Shown here piece by piece: positions 5,951-14,719 of a DNA stretch of 14,719 nucleotides. The stretch lies in the sequence record SRR16203515_19538; one strand, written 5' to 3'. The notes below the pieces were generated by a model. That model was not told where the DNA came from and searched no databases. It worked only from the letters and a program-made list of their open reading frames with translations. The position numbers and the translations under genes are program-made. Every line of letters begins with the position of its first letter. Position 1 is the first letter of the stretch.

Positions 5951-6090
5951 AAATTGGCAACTGCAAACGTAGGCTTCTGATAACGCTTAGTTTTTAACCT
6001 TGGCGCTATTTTGCCTTAGCCTTTGACTGACCGTTATGCAGACCAGATTACGTTAGCATCTAGGCACCGTGTGAGTATACCAACTCGATG

Positions 6091-6297
6091 CTACAAGCCC
6101 ATTTTAGCAGCTCGGATACGATCGGCTTTGCGTTTACGCTTAATTCCCTCTTTCGCCTGCCGTGCTTTTTTTACTGAGGGCTTCTCGTAAAATTCTTTTG
6201 TGCGCATCTCTCGTAGAAGCCCTTCACGCTACATCTTTTTTTTCAACACACGCAAAGCCTGATCGACATTATTGTCTCTTACATCAACGTGAAGCAT
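6091..6297 (-). pseudogene. rpsU: 30S ribosomal protein S21 paralogue with one in-frame TAG at codon 23
   Basis: Manual translation: MLHVDVRDNNVDQALRVLKKKM*REGLLREMRTKEFYEKPSVKKARQAKEGIKRKRKADRIRAAKMGL*. VRDNNVDQALR, KKKxQREG and YEKPS are S21 hallmarks. TAG at 6229-6231 replaces the conserved Gln. Confidence 0.93.
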
Positions 6298-6430
6298 TAA
6301 TAACTAGCCTACTATGTTTAAACATTGGCAGAGGTGAACCTACAATTGAAGCTTCTTCCGACTCGCAAAACAAATGGGACGTAAAGGCCCACCTCTCATC
6401 TCATAGTGATACAGTTATCATCCACTTCTG

Positions 6431-6463
6431 GCACAAAATCGACAACTCAGCACAAAATCGACA
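6431..6463 (+). repeat. 14-bp direct repeat, 19-bp period
   Basis: gcacaaaatcgaca at 6431-6444 and 6450-6463, in the rpsU/htpG divergent intergenic region. Confidence 0.8.
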
Positions 6464-6634
6464 TAATATTATTTAGTTAAGTCACTTTATCCACATTTAA
6501 TCGCTGCTAGCTGAGCTCTTCACCCTTTGACCTAATACCTTCAAAATTTGCCTAGAAGAAAAATTATCTACCACCCGACATATTGTAAATCTGTCGGCTC
6601 TCATTACTTATCGCACCAAATAATGGAGGATAAC

Positions 6635-8476
6635 ATGACGGTACAGACCCACGACTTTGAGGCCGATACAGGCAAAATTCTGAACATTGTGATTAACTCT
6701 CTTTATTCTGACAGAGACATATTTTTGCGTGAACTATTGTCCAACGCCTCTGATGCAATTCACAAACGAAAATTTCTCGGGCAAACGGAACCCAAACTCC
6801 TCGACAACAGTGCAGATGAAATTTCAATCAACATCGACGAAAAGAAGAAAACAATTGAAATCATTGATACTGGCATTGGATTGAATGCAGATGATCTGAC
6901 TGAAACATTTGGGACAATTGCACGTTCTGGAACCTCATCTTTTTTAGAAGCTATCGATGAGAATACAGATAAAAAAGACGCAGCTAAGACACTTATTGGT
7001 AAGTTTGGTGTGGGCTTTTATTCTGCTTTCATGGTTGCTGAAAAAGTAGTAGCCACAACAAAAAAAGCCGGCGAAGATGATACATTCATTTGGGAAAGTG
7101 ACGGCAAAACAGGTTATTCCATCACTTCATCAAGTGATGCACATGAGACTGGTACTTCGATAAAACTCTTTTTGCGCAAAGATGCCAAGGAATACGCTGA
7201 CGTCCAAAGACTCAAGACACTCATTAAAAAATATTCTGACCATATTCTCGTTCCAATTTTTGTAACCGCAAAGGATGCAGAGAAAGAACAGGCCAACAGC
7301 GCACAAGCGCTTTGGACAAAATCACCTTCAGAAATTTCTGCGGAAGAATACGCAGAATTTTACAGAAGCAGCTTGGGTGCATTCGATGAACCATTCATCA
7401 CCCTACACAACAAAACTGAGGGATCCATAGACTTCACTAATATGTTGTTTGTTCCAAAGACTGCGCCTTTTGACCTGTTTGAACCAGAACGAAAAACAAA
7501 AGTCAGCCTCTACATCAATCGTGTATTTATTAGCCAAGATGTCGACGGGATAATTCCAGCATGGTTACGTTTTGTTAAAGGTATCTTAGATACGACAAGC
7601 CTGGATCTGAACGTTAGCAGGGAGATGGTGCAGAATAGTCCTGTCATCAGAAAGATTGCAAAGTCTGTCACTAAAAAAGTTCTATCAGAACTGAAGAAGA
7701 AGCTGAAAAAGGACGAGACTGAATACGATGCATTTTGGGAACAATTCGGCAAGGTTCTGAAAGAAGGTCTCTACGAGGATTTTGAAAATCGTGAAAAAAT
7801 TGCAGAGATTACTCGGGTTTATTCGCTGAAACATGAAAAACTCATCAGCCTCGATGACTACATCGCAGAAATGGACGAAAAACAGGACAATATCTACTAC
7901 CTAGCGGCCGATACCCTCAAGCAGGCGAAGTCGAGTCCGCACTTAGAGGGCTTCCAGGCTAAGGGTGTAGACGTTCTTCTCATGACAGATCCCATTGATG
8001 CATTTTGGATGTCTCAGATGGGTTCATTCAAGGAAAAGGCATTCTTATCCATCTCACGTGATAAGTATGATTTGTCAGACTTGGATGATGAAGATGCAGC
8101 AGAAACATCAGATGATGAAGAAACCAACACAATCGCTGCCTTGATCAAAGAGTGCATCACTGACTTGGTTGAGGATGTAAAACCCACAGCAGCACTGGTG
8201 GAAAGCCCCGTAAGGCTCGTAGCGGGTGAGGGTGGATTAGACTTCAACCTCGAAAGAATTCTCAAAGCACAAAATCCCGACTTTGAGGGTGGAAAGAAGG
8301 TATTGGAGGTGAATTGTAATCACGACCTCGTGAAAAAGATTCCGTCACTTTCTTTAGATTTGCAAAAGGCTGTAAGCAGAATCTTGTTTGAACAAGCAAG
8401 AGTTCTTGACGGTGAAATGCCGTCGGATCCGCAGCAATTCTCAAAAGATCTAATTGCCCTAGGCAACGCCCTTTAA
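6635..8476 (+). CDS. htpG: Hsp90 chaperone HtpG
   Basis: SLYSDRDIFLRELLSNASDA, DTGIG, GTIARSGT, FGVGFYSAFMVA and LNVSRE. GGAGG RBS before ATG 6635 (613 aa). Confidence 0.97.
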   Translation: MTVQTHDFEADTGKILNIVINSLYSDRDIFLRELLSNASDAIHKRKFLGQTEPKLLDNSADEISINIDEKKKTIEIIDTGIGLNADDLTETFGTIARSGTSSFLEAIDENTDKKDAAKTLIGKFGVGFYSAFMVAEKVVATTKKAGEDDTFIWESDGKTGYSITSSSDAHETGTSIKLFLRKDAKEYADVQRLKTLIKKYSDHILVPIFVTAKDAEKEQANSAQALWTKSPSEISAEEYAEFYRSSLGAFDEPFITLHNKTEGSIDFTNMLFVPKTAPFDLFEPERKTKVSLYINRVFISQDVDGIIPAWLRFVKGILDTTSLDLNVSREMVQNSPVIRKIAKSVTKKVLSELKKKLKKDETEYDAFWEQFGKVLKEGLYEDFENREKIAEITRVYSLKHEKLISLDDYIAEMDEKQDNIYYLAADTLKQAKSSPHLEGFQAKGVDVLLMTDPIDAFWMSQMGSFKEKAFLSISRDKYDLSDLDDEDAAETSDDEETNTIAALIKECITDLVEDVKPTAALVESPVRLVAGEGGLDFNLERILKAQNPDFEGGKKVLEVNCNHDLVKKIPSLSLDLQKAVSRILFEQARVLDGEMPSDPQQFSKDLIALGNAL

Positions 8477-8482
8477 GGCAAT

Positions 8483-8522
8483 CGGTAGCCGCTACTGACG
8501 TTGGTTAGCGGCTACCGTTTTT
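8483..8522 (+). terminator. Rho-independent terminator of htpG
   Basis: Perfect 12-bp stem cggtagccgcta / tagcggctaccg followed by ttttt, 6 nt after the htpG stop. Confidence 0.88.
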
Positions 8523-9202
8523 CCCATCCAGTCCATAAGCACCTCAATCGGGCACCCAGAACCGTAGCCCTGCCCTACCCCGTCAGTCGCCCAACCTCCG
8601 ATTTGATCGGCGATGTCTGCAGGGCATTGCACAGCACGTAACCGGTCACGCATTGAAAGTCGAAAGCTGTGCATCGTGCAGCCCGCAGGGACATAGTTCC
8701 TCAGCCACTTGTTAATTGCAGCACTCGCCGAATTTGAACTGGTACGTGATCCACGATTGTATCTAGGGAACGCAAAAGTAGAAGTGTACGCTTCTTGCAG
8801 TATTCTGTTAGCAGCCCAGAGGGCCATTCCAGATAACGGTATTACTCTTGCACTAGCAGACGTCTTCAGACTGCGCCACGAGTGAGGACGCACCTCCACG
8901 AAAGGAATATCGCCCTGAAGGTTAAAGTCACTCAGTGACAGCCCTGCAGCTTCTGCCAGCCGCATTCCAGTATCTGACACCAAAGCTACAAGCCATCGGA
9001 TATCATCATCAATCTGCATACACTCTCGCTGAACACGGCGAAGGTCACCTATTGGGATAGGCTTTCGGGTGATAACACCCTTTGACCGATCATGGTACAC
9101 GCCCACAAAGGGATTACGGACATCCAAGGCAAATTCGGACAGGGCGAAGTTGATCACTGCTTTGACGTAGGAAAAGTTGCGGGTGACGCTTGATCCCGTT
9201 AA
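8492..9202 (-). pseudogene. 5'-truncated tyrosine recombinase/integrase
   Basis: Catalytic domain motifs DTGMRLAE, LKT..S.RVIPL, HSFR, IGGW and GQGYG. The frame continues upstream of the called GTG as LTGSSVTRNFSYVKAVINFA to about 9202, then meets TAA at 9218-9220. The N-terminal domains are absent. Confidence 0.88.
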
Positions 9203-9283
9203 ACGGATTGTGCGTATTTACTGGGCGGATGGTACTTTTGTAGGTGAAATGTATTTCTAACTATATGCAGAAATCTACCATCC

Positions 9284-9949
9284 CTACATCTTAAAATCTG
9301 CGATACCAAACCAACCACGATTAAAAAATAAGTTTGCGCCAACGTCTGATGACCTAATTTCTAATTCAGAGCGTGGTTCCAATTCAAACGTAGCATAGTC
9401 AGTTGGGACACCATTCACAAAGCTGTCATATATATTCAAATTGATAGGACGCCGTGTATCGTTGTTTAGTGTAACAACAAATCCTACCTGTGAAGCATCC
9501 AATGTAGCGAAAAGCAGTGCGCTTTCTATATCATTTATCGCCCTAGGAAGCATTGGATTGGCCTGCATGTTCAAATAATACACGCCGTCTACGCTCTCTT
9601 CTACAATCAATCCAACAATGCCATTGAAGCTATCTGCTTGGGACGTTGTAGAGAGTACAACAGTTGCAGTGAACTCTACGTTTGCCAATGCGAAAAAATT
9701 ATCCTCATCTGAGCTGCACGACTGTAGTATGCCATCCATGCCATATGTCTTCAAAATACCCAAAACCTGTCCGATTTCAGACTGACAGCTATCAACATCG
9801 GACGTAGGTATTTTGAGGAAAATTGGAATATCTATCGGTTGCTTGTCAGCAATAACGTCTTGAACGTCTCTTATGTAAAAGGTCGGGGTCACGTTAAAAT
9901 TACACGCCGACATAAACATTACACACACAACTGCTAGTATTTTCCGCAT
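9284..9949 (-). CDS. Hypothetical lipoprotein
   Basis: Type II signal peptide MRKILAVVCVMFMSA-C with a lipobox-like MSAC. 221 aa, AT-rich. Confidence 0.8.
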   Translation of the reverse strand: MRKILAVVCVMFMSACNFNVTPTFYIRDVQDVIADKQPIDIPIFLKIPTSDVDSCQSEIGQVLGILKTYGMDGILQSCSSDEDNFFALANVEFTATVVLSTTSQADSFNGIVGLIVEESVDGVYYLNMQANPMLPRAINDIESALLFATLDASQVGFVVTLNNDTRRPINLNIYDSFVNGVPTDYATFELEPRSELEIRSSDVGANLFFNRGWFGIADFKM

Positions 9950-10043
9950 AGTTTCAATCTCATTACACTTTCAAAAAGGGTATTTCAGCTGAACAAAAAG
10001 TCAAAAACAGTAAGTCGCAATAGCGATCGGTAAACTTTGTCAT

Positions 10044-10087
10044 TTTTGTCATTGATCTTGTTTTGCAAAGTGTTGCCCTGTGCAGAA
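10044..10087 (-). repeat. Degenerate copy of the tRNA-Phe att site and flank
   Basis: 10044-10080 matches 14604-14640 ungapped at 31/37 positions (offset 4560). It continues as tgcagaa versus gggcggaa. Confidence 0.8.
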
Positions 10088-10215
10088 CTTAACAACAAAC
10101 ACCAGGATGTTGCAGTCTGCTGTTGACCCATCGTAAATTAGTCACGAAACATATCATAGCAGTCCTAAAATCGATCAAAATGTAAGGACTACCTGAAAAC
10201 ATGAAAAGGTGACGC

Positions 10216-11376
10216 ATGCACTGGCGGACAAAACTTTTAGATCCAACTCCACATGCAAGACGCGATTATGCGTCACTTGCGACCCCAATTTACAGAGGCT
10301 CTACCGTTCTATTCAATGAACAATCCGCTGTAACTGATGATTGGAGACAAGCAGAAAATGGATATTCGTATGGACTTTATGGAACTCCAACAACACTTGA
10401 ACTTGCAAGTCGCATTGCAGATATCGAAGGTGCAAGAGAGACATTTATTGTTCCGGGTGGTCAAGCCGCGATTGCATTGATTTATCTGTCATATTGCGAG
10501 TCAGGAAGCCATGCATTAGTGCCCTTTTCGGCATATGGCCCCAATAAAGCAATTGCAGAAGGTTTGATGCGCGGCTTTGGCGTTGAAGTAGAAGAATATG
10601 ATCCCATGATTGGGGCAGGCATATCTGGCTTAATTCGTGAAAACACCAAACTGATTTGGTGCGAAAGTCCAGGCTCAGTAACCATGGAAATTCAAGATAT
10701 TCCAGCAATTGTATCCGCAGCTCAATCAATGGATGTAGCCGTTGCATTGGATAATACATACTCAGCCGGTGTTATGTTTGATGCCTTTTCATATGGTGTT
10801 GACGTAAGTATGCAGGCTTTAACAAAATACGTCGGAGGTCACAGCGATCTACTGCTTGGCGCTGTATCTGCACGAGACGACTCAGCTTATTCCAAGCTAG
10901 GTCCAGTATATCAACAGCTAGGGCTCGCTGTATCTCCCGACGATTGTGGTCTAGCGTTACGAGGAATACAGACGTTAGGCGTGCGCTTAGATGCTTTGGA
11001 AAAATCTACACTGCAAATCGCAAACTGGTTAGAAAAACATCCGTTAATAGAAAAAGTATTACATCCTGCTCTGCCTACATGTCCGGGTCATGAGATTTGG
11101 AAGCGTGATTTCTCCGGATCCAGCAGCGTGTTTTCTTTCGTATTTAAAAATTACATTAGCGTCGCACAGGCAGAAACCTTTATAAATTCTTTAGAAGTTT
11201 TCAGAATAGGTATGAGCTGGGGCGGCGTACATAGTCTCGCAGTAATCTACCCCGACTTGCTAAGACCAAATAAAGATTTTGGCGGCGCAATAGTACGACT
11301 GAATATAGGGCTCGAACAAACTGATGATCTCATCTCGGATCTTTCACAGGCGTTGCAAAAGACTACGCCCAAATAA
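10216..11376 (+). CDS. metC: Cystathionine beta-lyase family PLP enzyme
   Basis: PIYRGSTV, YGLYGTPT, ESPGS, DNTYS, PLP motif ALTKYVGGHSD, GMSWGG and RLNIGLE. Confidence 0.9.
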   Translation: MHWRTKLLDPTPHARRDYASLATPIYRGSTVLFNEQSAVTDDWRQAENGYSYGLYGTPTTLELASRIADIEGARETFIVPGGQAAIALIYLSYCESGSHALVPFSAYGPNKAIAEGLMRGFGVEVEEYDPMIGAGISGLIRENTKLIWCESPGSVTMEIQDIPAIVSAAQSMDVAVALDNTYSAGVMFDAFSYGVDVSMQALTKYVGGHSDLLLGAVSARDDSAYSKLGPVYQQLGLAVSPDDCGLALRGIQTLGVRLDALEKSTLQIANWLEKHPLIEKVLHPALPTCPGHEIWKRDFSGSSSVFSFVFKNYISVAQAETFINSLEVFRIGMSWGGVHSLAVIYPDLLRPNKDFGGAIVRLNIGLEQTDDLISDLSQALQKTTPK

Positions 11377-11463: not shown

Positions 11464-12630
11464 TTATATCATTGGCAGCTCAGGTTGAGCACGTTCGGTC
11501 AAAAGTCTAGCTTGGCCTTCCGAAACAACAATATTCTCTTCATGAACCATCATCTTGCCGTTTCCATAGCTAAGAGACGGTTCTATCGTAAGCACCATAT
11601 TTTCCTTAAGAACAGTCGTATCAAATATAGCATGTGAAGGCTGTTCTGTTAGTTGCATTCCAAGGCCATGGCCAAGTCTTCCTATTTCACCACCACTATC
11701 ATCAATTTCTGCAATTACAGTAGACATTGCCACATAAAGGTCACGGCAGGTGGCACCTGGGCGTGCAGCGTCAATTCCAGCTTGGGTGGCACGCCAAAGT
11801 ACATCGTATGCACGACAAGCTAACTCATCAGCTTGACCGATAGCCCAGTTGCGGTCGAAGTCGCAAAAATATCCGTCCCATACACAGCCTGTGTCCAGCA
11901 TTAACACATCACCGTTTTGCAATGGCCGTGAAGAGGGCGGCGATATAACATCGGCATACCCACCCTGGTCAGCAGCACCGACTACATACGGAGCGTTATC
12001 AGCACCAAGCTCTATTGCAGTACGTCGGAACTCACGGAAAACCGCATCGAGCGGCATGCCTTCCTTCAGGAACTCCGGGGCCGCGGCAAATGCGCCTGAT
12101 CCAATCGCACAAATGTGCTCGAGCTTTTCAACTTCCGCTGGCGTCTTCACCATTCGCAAACTTTGTACGAGGCCTGTAGCATCTGCGATCTGCATGCCTG
12201 GCAAAGCCGCAATAAGGCGCTCCCAGTCTGCTAGGGGCATACGAAGGCAAGTTTCATGTCCCTTCATTATTCCGATACATTCGCGTTTTCTTGCTAGCGG
12301 CGAAAGTATCTCCATAAGCAGACTAATTCCATCGTCTTTTGGGCTAGGAGCTGGCCAAGTACGCACGTCATCGAGCCAGCCCCTACGCATCAATTCTGCT
12401 CCAATTTCTGGGATGACTGCTATTGGTTTGCCTTCAGCAGGAATAAATAAGAACCATGGGCGGGTTGGACTTTGCCAAAATAGAGTATTGAACCCACTAA
12501 AATAGTAAAGTTCCGGTTCAGTCATCAACAAAAGTCCCTCTAGTCCGTCGATAGCCATTAGTGCCTGCGCCCGCTCGGTGCGAGAGCGGTATTCCTCAGG
12601 TTCAAATCCGCGTGATGGTAATGTCAACAT
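11464..12630 (-). CDS. M24 (Xaa-Pro peptidase fold) metallohydrolase
   Basis: Creatinase-like N-terminus (F..EEY..R) and RMVKTPAE. Metal ligands in LDTG, YFCDFDR, GHGLG, TIEP and VHEE. ATG 12630 has AAAGG upstream. Confidence 0.92.
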   Translation of the reverse strand: MLTLPSRGFEPEEYRSRTERAQALMAIDGLEGLLLMTEPELYYFSGFNTLFWQSPTRPWFLFIPAEGKPIAVIPEIGAELMRRGWLDDVRTWPAPSPKDDGISLLMEILSPLARKRECIGIMKGHETCLRMPLADWERLIAALPGMQIADATGLVQSLRMVKTPAEVEKLEHICAIGSGAFAAAPEFLKEGMPLDAVFREFRRTAIELGADNAPYVVGAADQGGYADVISPPSSRPLQNGDVLMLDTGCVWDGYFCDFDRNWAIGQADELACRAYDVLWRATQAGIDAARPGATCRDLYVAMSTVIAEIDDSGGEIGRLGHGLGMQLTEQPSHAIFDTTVLKENMVLTIEPSLSYGNGKMMVHEENIVVSEGQARLLTERAQPELPMI

Positions 12631-12760
12631 TGGCAACCTTTCGTACTTTTTAATAGCGTGAAAACTAAGTGAATATTCTGTACCAAAACTATCTACCGAA
12701 ATTGCATAAAAACAACCTTTTATCTTGACAAATCGATACAGAAAACTGTCCGCTAGGGAT

Positions 12761-12792
12761 TATGGAGTATACCATACGTGATTATACTATAC
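12761..12792. promoter_or_regulatory. Candidate GntR/FadR-type operator in divergent promoter
   Basis: Imperfect palindrome tatggagtataccata plus a second half-copy ttatactatac. TTGACA at 12725-12730. Confidence 0.4.
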
Positions 12793-12911
12793 GTCGATGA
12801 AAACTTCACTGATTGCACCGAAAGAAAAGCGAACTTTCGCCGCCTATTTCAGTGTGACGTTGTTCATAAAATGAACGGAAGAGCATCGTCGTATTTATAA
12901 GGGAGATGTTC

Positions 12912-13799
12912 ATGCGTAATTTAACACAGGAACAAATAGATGCTTTTTGGTATGACGGTTTTCTGGTGATAGAAGAAGCAGTTTCAAAAGGTGAGCTAAC
13001 CGAGCTTAAGGCTGAATTTAACGACTGGGTTGAAGAAAGTCGTTCACATAATGATGACTATGGTGAGACGTTGGATGGTCGTGCTAGATTTGACCTACAA
13101 CCGGGACATAGTGCTGACCGTCCGGCGCTTCGAAGAGTACAGTCACCTGAAGAAGTATCGCATGTATTCGAAAACACAATGCGAAATGCCAAAACTGTAG
13201 ACTTCTGCGCTGAACTTATTGGGCCTGGAATCCGATTTCATCACGGTAAGGTGAACTCTAAGCTGCCTGGTGCAGCAACGCAGATAAAGTGGCATCAGGA
13301 TTTTCCTTTTCAGCCCATGACAAACGATGACATGATTACCTGTCTTTTATTTATCGACGAAGTGACCCTAGAAAATGGCCCTCTCGAAGTTATCCCAGGT
13401 AGTCATAAAGGGCCAATTCACTCACATTGGCACGGAGGTATATTTACCGGAGCCGTAGATGACGCGATCATTGATGCACAGCGTGAGAAGATTGTGAAAT
13501 GCACTGGTAAGGCGGGGTCAGTTTGCTTGATGCATGTGAACTTATTGCACGGTTCTGCTCCAAACTTATCAGATTTCCCACGTACGCTCTATATCGCAAC
13601 CTATTATGCAGAAGACGCTATCGAGCTGAGCCCCAATCATTTACCTAGTAGATTGACACACGAATTTGTGCGCGGTGAACCTTCTGGTCGAGTTCGATGC
13701 ACAAACTATGAAATGGAGATCCCAGCAGTACCCAAAGGCACCTCTTTCTTCGGTCAACAAGAGGGCTCGGACGACGTTAAATTGGGAACGATCATGTAG
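12912..13799 (+). CDS. PhyH-family Fe(II)/2-oxoglutarate dioxygenase
   Basis: WHQD (HxD), ENGPL.VIPGSH and LLHGSAPN.S..PR. GGGAG RBS 6 nt before ATG 12912. Confidence 0.93.
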   Translation: MRNLTQEQIDAFWYDGFLVIEEAVSKGELTELKAEFNDWVEESRSHNDDYGETLDGRARFDLQPGHSADRPALRRVQSPEEVSHVFENTMRNAKTVDFCAELIGPGIRFHHGKVNSKLPGAATQIKWHQDFPFQPMTNDDMITCLLFIDEVTLENGPLEVIPGSHKGPIHSHWHGGIFTGAVDDAIIDAQREKIVKCTGKAGSVCLMHVNLLHGSAPNLSDFPRTLYIATYYAEDAIELSPNHLPSRLTHEFVRGEPSGRVRCTNYEMEIPAVPKGTSFFGQQEGSDDVKLGTIM

Positions 13800-13801
13800 C
13801 T

Positions 13802-14584
13802 ATGGAGAACACAACAGCAGATATGCCCATAACCATAGAAACATTAGAGTTTGACACCGACGCTGGATTGGGACACACCGCTCGGATTGGACTAATTGTT
13901 TTGCAAACAGACCAAACTATCGAATACGAATTCGCTCATATGTTTCATGTCCCTGACGTCGCACTTTACCATGCCAGGATCCCTAATGCGATGGAAGTGT
14001 CTCCAGAAACTTTGCGCAGAATGCAACTTGATCTTCCTGAAACTGCCGCCCTTCTTCCAGAGGCTTTCCAGTTTGACGCAATAGGATATGCTTGTACTTC
14101 AGGAGCCACAATGATTGGGGAGACCAAGGTCGACAAAATAATCCGAGAAGTTCATCCACAAGCCGCAACCTCCAATCCACTCACCGCATGTAAAGCCGCA
14201 TTCGAGAAATTGAAGCTAAGGAACATAGCGTTGGTCACTCCTTACTCGCCGGATGTCACGCTTGAGATGCAAGCCAATTTGCGAAGTGCTGGATTTAATA
14301 CGGTCGCAGTTGCCTCATTCAATCAGACTGATGATTTCACCGTTGCGCGGATCACATCGGAAAGTATCTTAAAAGCCATAACTAACGTTGGGGCGAGGGA
14401 TGAAGTAGACGGCGTGTTTGTTTCGTGTACCAGCCTTAGGACATTGAATATTATAAACGAAGCAGAATTGCAGATTGATAAGCCAGTAATCACTTCAAAT
14501 CAGGCCCTTGGGTGGCACCTGGCACGACTTTCAGGACTACGTTGTGCAAAGCATGAATTTGGACGCATTTTCACCTATTCGTAA
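13802..14584 (+). CDS. Asp/Glu racemase - maleate isomerase superfamily protein (EutA-like)
   Basis: IGLIVLQTDQTIE, two catalytic-type Cys motifs YACTSG and VSCTSL, TPY and KPVITSNQAL. Starts 2 nt after the PhyH stop. Confidence 0.9.
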   Translation: MENTTADMPITIETLEFDTDAGLGHTARIGLIVLQTDQTIEYEFAHMFHVPDVALYHARIPNAMEVSPETLRRMQLDLPETAALLPEAFQFDAIGYACTSGATMIGETKVDKIIREVHPQAATSNPLTACKAAFEKLKLRNIALVTPYSPDVTLEMQANLRSAGFNTVAVASFNQTDDFTVARITSESILKAITNVGARDEVDGVFVSCTSLRTLNIINEAELQIDKPVITSNQALGWHLARLSGLRCAKHEFGRIFTYS

Positions 14585-14630
14585 TATTCAGCACAAAAAT
14601 AACTTTTGTCATTGATATTGTTTTTGAAAG

Positions 14631-14676
14631 TGGTGACCGGGGGCGGAATCGAACCACCGACACGAAGATTTTCAAT
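14631..14676 (-). repeat. 3' half of tRNA-Phe(GAA), att-site fragment
   Basis: Minus strand ATTGAAAATCTTCGTGTCGGTGGTTCGATTCCGCCCCCGGTCACCA contains an anticodon loop with GAA, a T arm and CCA. No D arm or 5' acceptor strand lies upstream. Confidence 0.9.
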
Positions 14677-14719
14677 AGAGATGGCAATAAATAATTAAAT
14701 GAATACAGTAAGTTGTATG

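Follow-up and report, generated by a model that had tools for sequence, protein, structure and literature searches.

A recurrent module of an M24 hydrolase, a PhyH-type dioxygenase and a EutA-like enzyme: a candidate catabolic route for an onium-carboxylate osmolyte

Three described systems come close to a small gene module in the sequence record SRR16203515_19538, from which a stretch of 14,719 nucleotides (nts), here called the window, was analysed. The module consists of an M24 di-metal hydrolase, a PhyH-family Fe(II)/2-oxoglutarate dioxygenase and a EutA-like two-cysteine enzyme. The first of the related systems is that of ectoine, with the hydroxylase EctD, the catabolic genes eutABCDE/doeABCD and the importers Ehu or Ueh, in which M24, PhyH-type and EutA-type folds are likewise found. 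The second comprises the lyases of dimethylsulfoniopropionate (DMSP): DddP has the M24 fold, Alma1 belongs to the Asp/Glu racemase superfamily, and in both cases the proton alpha to the carboxylate is removed and the beta-substituent expelled. These are the superfamilies of two of the module genes; known DMSP cleavage, however, takes place without any 2-oxoglutarate dioxygenase. The third is DmpXWV, a DMSP-specific importer of Roseobacters and SAR11, of which the binding protein DmpX from Roseovarius nubinhibens is available as a DMSP complex (PDB 7YLE; Li et al. 2023, PMC10030565). As far as the available text of that study goes, no known genes of DMSP catabolism lie beside dmpXWV (PMC10030565).

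The module recurs in other alpha- and gammaproteobacterial records, and many genomes link it to just this importer, for which the original study, in the text available, reports no catabolic genes nearby (PMC10030565). Our preferred reading, to which we give slightly less than even confidence, is that the module catabolises a DMSP-like onium-carboxylate osmolyte via hydroxylation, alpha-proton chemistry and metal-dependent cleavage. The leading candidates are not ectoine but DMSP and closely related dimethyl-onium compounds, for instance N,N-dimethyl-beta-alanine or beta-alanine betaine. If the substrate is indeed DMSP or a close analogue, the cluster would offer a route to the enzymes that oxidise DMSP to dimethylsulfoxonium propionate (DMSOP) and to those that break down beta-alanine betaine and related osmolytes; we know of no enzyme identified for DMSP oxidation to DMSOP or for beta-alanine betaine breakdown. 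If it is another osmolyte, the module would still represent a new pathway, specific for its substrate, in Roseobacters, SAR116 and Granulosicoccaceae. A search of the full-text literature, with most subscription journals outside its reach, gave no account of the cluster or of a link between PhyH proteins and DMSP.

Gene order and recurrence of the module

In the window, the M24 gene (11464–12636, minus strand, 390 aa; Pfam Creatinase_N 50 bits, Peptidase_M24 123 bits) and the dioxygenase gene (12906–13799, plus strand, 297 aa; Pfam PhyH, PF05721, 106 bits against a cut-off of 22) diverge from a 269 bp intergenic region (12637–12905). The EutA-like gene (13802–14584, plus strand, 260 aa; Pfam Amdase, 62 bits, Asp/Glu racemase superfamily) starts 2 nts past the PhyH stop. 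To follow these genes elsewhere, one genome per species was sampled, which gave 80 loci with a 69–98 % identical dioxygenase. Partner counts leave aside the near-identical locus L010, so that they concern the 79 other loci (69–83 % identical), and in each case only those with a long enough flank. Many of these loci are short metagenome contigs with mechanically called open reading frames (ORFs), and related genomes are not independent samples.

In 28 of 67 loci, the 4 kb upstream of the dioxygenase include an M24 orthologue (63–81 % identical), and in 33 of 77 a EutA-like gene follows directly downstream. Both are present in 19 of 65 loci and at least one of them in 36 of 65. The initial annotation had proposed a search for co-occurrence, and the three genes do recur together, in Alpha- as well as Gammaproteobacteria. 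Two further genes are frequent near the dioxygenase: a GntR regulator (27/70) and a gene related to dimethylglycine dehydrogenase (DMGDH; 27/62), the latter being the commonest partner when all ORFs are clustered (35 of 80 loci). The clustering also yields a canonical layout, in which the ATPase, permease and binding protein of an ATP-binding cassette (ABC) importer, the M24 gene and gntR occupy the strand opposite to the dioxygenase, and the dioxygenase, EutA-like and DMGDH-like genes follow on the other side. The gaps from PhyH to EutA-like (mostly 0–39 nts) and from EutA-like to DMGDH-like (mostly 6–62 nts) indicate operons. The DMGDH-like partner has a FAD-DAO, FAO_M and GcvT architecture and scores 459 bits against rat DMGDH (4pab), which recalls the demethylation chain of glycine betaine; this gene is, however, missing from the locus in the window. 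Compared with this larger regulon, with its GntR protein, DMGDH-like demethylase and importer, the module of the window is reduced.

The two loci whose layout is closest to that of the window, L030 and L034, carry a cupin of the family PF16867 ('DMSP_lyase'), then metC-like and M24 genes, divergent PhyH and EutA-like genes, and finally dmpXWV-like genes. Genes for an omega-aminotransferase (8 loci), M20 deacylases, a diaminopropionate ammonia-lyase (6 loci), a BisC-family S/N-oxide reductase and class-III aminotransferases likewise recur in the neighbourhood.

The titles of the 80 records name Rhodobacterales, SAR116/Puniceispirillales, Hyphomicrobiales, Geminicoccaceae and the gammaproteobacterial Granulosicoccaceae. 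Since orthologues keep 69–83 % identity across alpha- and gammaproteobacterial records, the sequences suggest strong selection and lateral spread of the dioxygenase. In an even sample of the class, 24 of 301 genomes contained any homologue at E 1e-60. The dioxygenase is common in marine data: a metagenome protein search returned 4992 homologues (E up to 0.001), the 120 best listed being 75–98 % identical. The plasmid collection held no match at E 1e-60, and the ESM Atlas returned generic PhyH clusters only. None of the module partners was present in 16 loci with dioxygenase homologues of 40–68 % identity. The linkage is confined to the dioxygenase orthogroup, and the more distant homologues were not used to infer function because the partner genes are absent there.

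Between the gntR and PhyH genes, a perfect palindrome, TGGTATATACCA, is found in 29 of 95 loci, usually in two copies 10–70 nts apart (for example L022, 9891–9902 and 9970–9981; the loci range from L011 to L077). It is likely to be the operator of the GntR/UTRA regulator, and the two would make a ready pair for biosensing. The intergenic region of the window contains neither a gntR gene nor this operator, and the palindrome had no match in the window at up to three mismatches. This region cannot be aligned with the corresponding gap of L030 or L034. According to the initial annotation, the three genes share one divergent promoter region. The divergent geometry stands; a common promoter found no support, since a scan for the sigma-70 consensus gave no promoter-like site in the gap (five sites in the region as a whole versus 5.5 expected). 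More generally, the number of promoter and terminator sites did not exceed that of shuffled sequence. Because Shine-Dalgarno-like motifs, GAAAGG and AAGGGAG, precede internal ATG codons, translation of the M24 gene more likely starts at 12630 and that of the dioxygenase gene probably at 12912.

Some loci depart from the canonical arrangement. One variant, L127 (G490:C6), has dmpW, dmpX, M24 and gntR facing EutA-like and DMGDH-like genes, and no dioxygenase was found between gntR and the EutA-like gene. In five SAR116-type loci (L029, L035, L042, L045 and L052) the dioxygenase is 72–76 % identical and occurs without M24 or EutA-like genes, its neighbours being LacI, DctPQM, a histidinol-dehydrogenase-like protein and a short-chain dehydrogenase/reductase, a layout which resembles that of the genes for dihydroxypropanesulfonate (DHPS; hps). 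Chalcone-isomerase-like, aldo-keto reductase, methyltransferase and EamA genes also flank the dioxygenase in such loci. Finally, L043 and L065 (for example L065, 14212–18066) have two genes past the DMGDH-like one. The first encodes a CysK-like pyridoxal phosphate (PLP) protein that is extended by about 150 residues at its N-terminus, the other a cytoplasmic molybdopterin S/N-oxide reductase of the BisC family, with a score of 870 bits (cut-off 1017).

Folds and active sites of the three proteins

The dioxygenase carries the iron triad H130, D132 and H215 as well as R226, which would bind 2-oxoglutarate, all four being invariant in 73 of 73 sequences. The motif WHQDFPF occupies residues 129–135. 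For EctD, the available text of PMC5924519 gives a signature of 17 residues, F-x-W-H-S-D-F-E-T-W-H-x-E-D-G-M/L-P. The corresponding residues 127–143 of the dioxygenase, IKWHQDFPFQPMTNDDM, agree with that signature, as given there, at only 4 of the 15 specified positions, and the protein scores 73.9 bits against the EctD model TIGR02408, for which the cut-off is 336.5. The initial annotation had already set WHQDFPF apart from the EctD signature, and rightly so. The predicted structure (mean pLDDT, the model's own confidence measure, 93.6) has as its nearest solved folds the trans-3/4-proline hydroxylase H11, the leucine hydroxylase GriE and EctD, all at 20–24 % identity. These relatives act on free zwitterionic amino acids and not on CoA esters. 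H11 and GriE share the iron and 2-oxoglutarate ligands with the dioxygenase; they are, however, biosynthetic or biocatalytic enzymes, whereas the dioxygenase lies in a catabolic-looking, repressor-controlled locus. Three longer PhyH proteins (P0123, P0223 and P0262) contained no second Pfam family.

In the M24 protein, D248, D259, H323, E352 and E366 fall, by alignment, on the D/D/H/E/E positions of the Pyrococcus prolidase 1pv9 and are conserved in 30–31 of 31 orthologues; we take these positions of 1pv9 to be its di-metal ligands. Prolidase-type dipeptidases are also the closest solved relatives in a sequence search of the PDB (1wn1, 99.6 bits; 1pv9), the creatinase 1chm reaching 47 bits and DoeA (6twk) 44.8 bits. 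Against the DoeA/EutD models TIGR02993 and NF038259 the protein scores 38.5 and 44.0 bits (cut-offs 613 and 575). Its score with the archaeal PepQ model NF040821, 94.8 bits, is far below the cut-off of 630 as well, yet above its DoeA scores. Solved DddP structures are present in the PDB; among the best 60 of the 78 PDB matches of the M24 protein, none was named DddP or DMSP lyase.

The EutA-like protein finds its best model match in EutA itself (TIGR02990), with 181.5 bits against a cut-off of 318; its orthologues and the second EutA-like copy found in some relatives score 176–190 bits. The best PDB matches of its predicted structure (pLDDT 94.8) are maleate cis-trans isomerases (4fq5 and 2xec; TM score 0.82–0.86, 22–24 % identity), followed by arylmalonate decarboxylase. 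Two cysteines, C98 and C209, match those of maleate isomerase in the alignment, and both are present in all 39 of 39 sequences compared. As judged from the modelled fold and this cysteine pair, the protein is a member of the maleate-isomerase/arylmalonate-decarboxylase branch of the Asp/Glu racemase superfamily. Despite this likeness the identity is low, and the nicotinate or maleate pathway context of these enzymes is not found around the EutA-like gene. Taken together, the ORF coordinates, Pfam matches and conserved residues bear out the earlier description of three genes with intact catalytic motifs. EutA-like domains also occur in two fusion proteins, P0272 (614 aa) and P0271 (564 aa), which are 33–36 % identical, single-member and present on one contig each. 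One of the fusions includes a PF01212 beta-eliminating-lyase domain, which echoes the recurrent neighbourhood of PLP beta-lyases, and one an ArgJ-family domain. As functional clues these fusions were set aside, being too few and too distant.

Linked importers, candidate substrates and alternatives

A DmpX-like gene lies near the dioxygenase in 13 of 66 loci; there is none in the window. In the canonical cluster, the binding protein is of the OpuAC type and matches PDB 7YLE with 406–408 bits at about 63 % identity. The pocket in which DmpX holds DMSP is formed, in the published text available, by W35, T64, W84, E113, W152, A153, Y200 and W202 (PMC10030565). Seven of these eight residues (W35, T64, W84, E113, W152, Y200 and W202) are kept in all 12 module-linked DmpX-like proteins compared, position 153 being G or A, and the same seven are kept in 18 of 20 stand-alone DmpX homologues. 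The importer of the relatives thus resembles DmpXWV in sequence and pocket and stands beside the M24 gene; it differs in its genomic setting, as dmpXWV is reported, within the text available, to have no known DMSP catabolic neighbours (PMC10030565).

It is this importer with a DMSP pocket, directly downstream of the M24 gene, on the same strand and within the GntR-operator locus, that makes us favour a DMSP-like dimethyl-onium propionate as substrate. The reduced form of the module points the same way, since it is joined by the DMSP-lyase-like cupin and by a C-S/C-N beta-lyase, and so does the fact that two of the folds are those of DddP and Alma1. The latter likeness had been mentioned in passing in the initial annotation, which had also proposed a search for linked transporters; the physical linkage of the module to a DMSP importer in the loci counted above gives that remark more weight.

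As regards substrate, order of the steps and chemistry, we infer the following scheme. The PhyH-type enzyme, with Fe(II), 2-oxoglutarate and O2, would add a hydroxyl group to the free zwitterion; proline, leucine and ectoine are treated in this way by its nearest solved relatives. The cysteine pair of the EutA-like enzyme would then act on the proton alpha to the carboxylate, so that either the centre is inverted or a beta-leaving group is expelled. In a third step, the di-metal site of the M24 protein may cleave a C-N or C-S bond. A PLP beta-lyase, in the window the metC-like protein, could finally yield pyruvate; in most relatives a folate-linked DMGDH-like demethylase would take this place. 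In view of the DMGDH-like partner and the omega-aminotransferase, the nitrogen analogues (dimethyl-beta-alanine, beta-alanine betaine) are a better fit than DMSP itself.

A number of observations weigh against a DMSP-like substrate. Of 201 genomes of the order, 42 possess a DmpX-like gene; among the 20 best loci from these 42, only 2 adjoin module genes, so that the module is missing from 18 of 20. In the near-identical genome G001 the DmpX-like gene is on another contig than the module. The gaps between M24 and dmpX measure 45–389 nts, which makes co-transcription of the two uncertain. An importer, a GntR regulator and a DMGDH-like gene are all missing from the window. G001 encodes at least six DMGDH-like paralogues (about 32–49 % identical), the best match to the DMGDH-like partner being only 49 % identical. 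The dioxygenase occurs without either M24 or EutA-like partner in 29 of 65 assessable loci, and in SAR116 it is found beside the LacI/TRAP/histidinol-dehydrogenase-like set. The DMGDH family is known for N-methyl, not S-methyl substrates, and DMSP chemistry would give the M24 protein no role, except by analogy to DddP. Finally, an ABC importer of the Ehu (ectoine) type takes the neighbouring place in 8 of 66 loci, which points to an ectoine-like ligand.

These Ehu-type neighbours are part of the case for the strongest alternative, which we nevertheless consider unlikely: that the substrate is an N-methylated cyclic imino or amidine amino acid, an analogue of ectoine or proline betaine, which would be hydroxylated, epimerised, opened at its ring or amide bond by the M24 protein in the manner of DoeA, deacylated, N-demethylated and deaminated to pyruvate. 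The locus parallels the ectoine genes part for part, EutA provides the best model match of one of its proteins, and the nearest solved dioxygenases work on proline and ectoine. In Ruegeria loci, EhuA (395 bits, cut-off 345), EhuC (242/197) and EhuD (280/205) pass their cut-offs and EhuB just fails (173/191). Relatives further contain a DoeB2-like M20 protein (310 bits versus 550) and a second, DoeA-like M24 protein (418 versus 613). AsnC regulators and class-III aminotransferases recur, and in three loci a single transcription unit comprises the genes for M24, diaminopropionate ammonia-lyase and M20. The prevalence of the DMGDH-like partner would also suit an N-methylated compound. However, the Ehu-type unit comes with an AsnC regulator and a second, distant EutA-like protein (27–29 % identical) of its own, besides a diaminopropionate ammonia-lyase (471 bits, cut-off 276) and a EutQ-like cupin, and because of this own regulator and EutA-like gene it may serve a separate pathway. 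The pocket of the DmpX-like proteins, for its part, is identical to that of stand-alone DmpX proteins, and to our knowledge no abundant marine metabolite answers to such a description.

Returning to a DMSP-like substrate, the most far-reaching form of that reading, which we regard as rather doubtful, is an oxygen-dependent route for DMSP itself. The dioxygenase would hydroxylate DMSP at carbon or oxygenate it at sulfur (to DMSOP), the EutA-like and M24 proteins would expel the sulfur group, and the carbon would flow to pyruvate or malonate semialdehyde and not to toxic acrylate. Should it hold true, the marine sulfur cycle would gain a new family of enzymes.

A proline/hydroxyproline route is less probable still. 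Here, a prolidase-like M24 protein would free proline from Xaa-Pro peptides, the dioxygenase would hydroxylate it and the EutA-like enzyme would epimerise the product. Prolidases are indeed the best matches of the M24 protein and H11 is that of the dioxygenase by structure, but the PepQ score is 95 where the cut-off is 630 and the identity to H11 only 23–24 %. In the near-identical contig, genes for an MFS_2 transporter and a proline-racemase-family protein come after the module; this pair, however, occurs in one of 80 loci and lies beyond the repeat that closes the block (see below). Besides, proline catabolism needs no hydroxylation, and DMGDH-like, DmpX-like and GntR partners do not fit such a route.

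A divergent but genuine degradation of ectoine or 5-hydroxyectoine is highly improbable, in spite of the same three folds, the EutA model match and the Ehu-type importers near some loci. All three proteins miss the curated cut-offs widely and the EctD signature is largely absent; because the M24, PhyH and EutA-like proteins score so far below the DoeA/EutD, EctD and EutA thresholds, we do not regard the module as an ectoine pathway. The list of ORFs in the window has 26 entries of 80 aa or more; 16 of them were scanned for families, and these included none of the companions eutB, eutC, eutE/doeB and enuR nor an ehu or ueh importer, in agreement with the earlier remark that eutB, eutC and eutE are absent. 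The catabolic scheme in the available text of PMC5924519 has no place for a hydroxylase. Some relatives do add an Ehu-type ABC importer, an AsnC regulator, a DoeB2-like deacylase and a class-III aminotransferase to the shared folds; the regulator of the module is nonetheless GntR/UTRA rather than EnuR, and its usual partners, the DMGDH-like protein and the DmpX-type importer, are foreign to the ectoine scheme. The original idea of an ectoine look-alike directed at another marine osmolyte is supported, since neither of the two results that were to refute it was obtained: by the curated cut-offs the proteins lie outside the characterised DoeA/EutD, EctD and EutA families, and the genes occur together in other genomes. 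That the genes have no joint function and are merely unrelated neighbours gathered in a genomic island can be given equally little credence, for although repeats flank the block, an integrase remnant adjoins it and the dioxygenase often lacks both partners, the same order and orientation are found in records of Rhodobacterales, Hyphomicrobiales, Geminicoccaceae, SAR116 and Granulosicoccaceae, with operon-like gaps and a shared operator.

The repeat-bounded block and its surroundings

The module shares a block of four genes with a metC-like PLP beta-lyase gene (10216–11376, plus strand; Cys_Met_Meta_PP, 310 bits), which is convergent with the M24 gene. The metC-like protein scores 548.3 bits against the PRK-derived equivalog model for cystathionine beta-lyase, PRK07050 (cut-off 500), and is thus by sequence a putative enzyme of this kind. 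A metC-like gene of 71–77 % identity lies near the dioxygenase in seven other loci (L030, L034, L044 (partial), L064, L070, L079 and L089), or in 4 of 66 by a stricter count. In the lineage of the window, this gene probably provides the terminal step of the module.

Two copies of a direct repeat, family D1, bracket the four genes 4560 nts apart. The left copy (10044–10078) is 35 nts long and 86 % identical to the right one (14604–14638), which continues to 14680 into a stretch resembling the 3' half of a tRNA. Its minus strand reads like a T-arm followed by an acceptor end; ARAGORN found no tRNA in the repeat stretch and Rfam gave nothing at the gathering threshold. In G001, 11 matches to the queried stretch were obtained, namely the locus itself and ten that match only the repeat element (L002, L003 and L005–L008 among them). 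The copy of the locus in G001 ends in a truncated repeat element, and several of the element-only matches lie at contig ends.

To the left of the block, between htpG and the repeat, the window carries a truncated ORF of the Phage_integrase family (8492–9157, minus strand, 221 aa, 47 bits) and a DUF7424 ORF (9284–9949, minus strand). G+C content drops to 0.40–0.42 around 6000–7500 and 9000–10500. The integrase remnant, the DUF7424 ORF and the dips in G+C suggest an island boundary. The remaining window genes encode a thioesterase, prephenate dehydrogenase, a class-I/II aminotransferase, RpsD, a transporter of the major facilitator superfamily (MFS) and HtpG.

The DNA past the end of the window was read from the 98 % identical contig of G001. 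Beyond the right repeat, this contig shows a proline-racemase-family gene and, next to it, an MFS_2/GPH transporter (L009, 1662–2675 and 3139–4497). The best NCBIfam match of the former is trans-3-hydroxy-L-proline dehydratase, with 322 bits against a cut-off of 550. Its product has Ser in MSGSN, at what we take to be the position of the first catalytic Cys of proline racemases, and Cys in SPCGTG, presumably the second site. This pair of genes was rejected as a part of the module on account of its single occurrence and its position beyond the repeat.

Contigs from four marine RNA libraries, belonging to four studies, cover the metC-like through EutA-like genes at 95–99 % identity, and single contigs span the dioxygenase and EutA-like genes. 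Such contigs attest the presence of the genes and, given possible DNA carry-over, are not proof of transcription; parts without cover were not interpreted. In two of the four runs, the contig depth over 14582–14719, at the right repeat, was up to about 100-fold above that over the genes.

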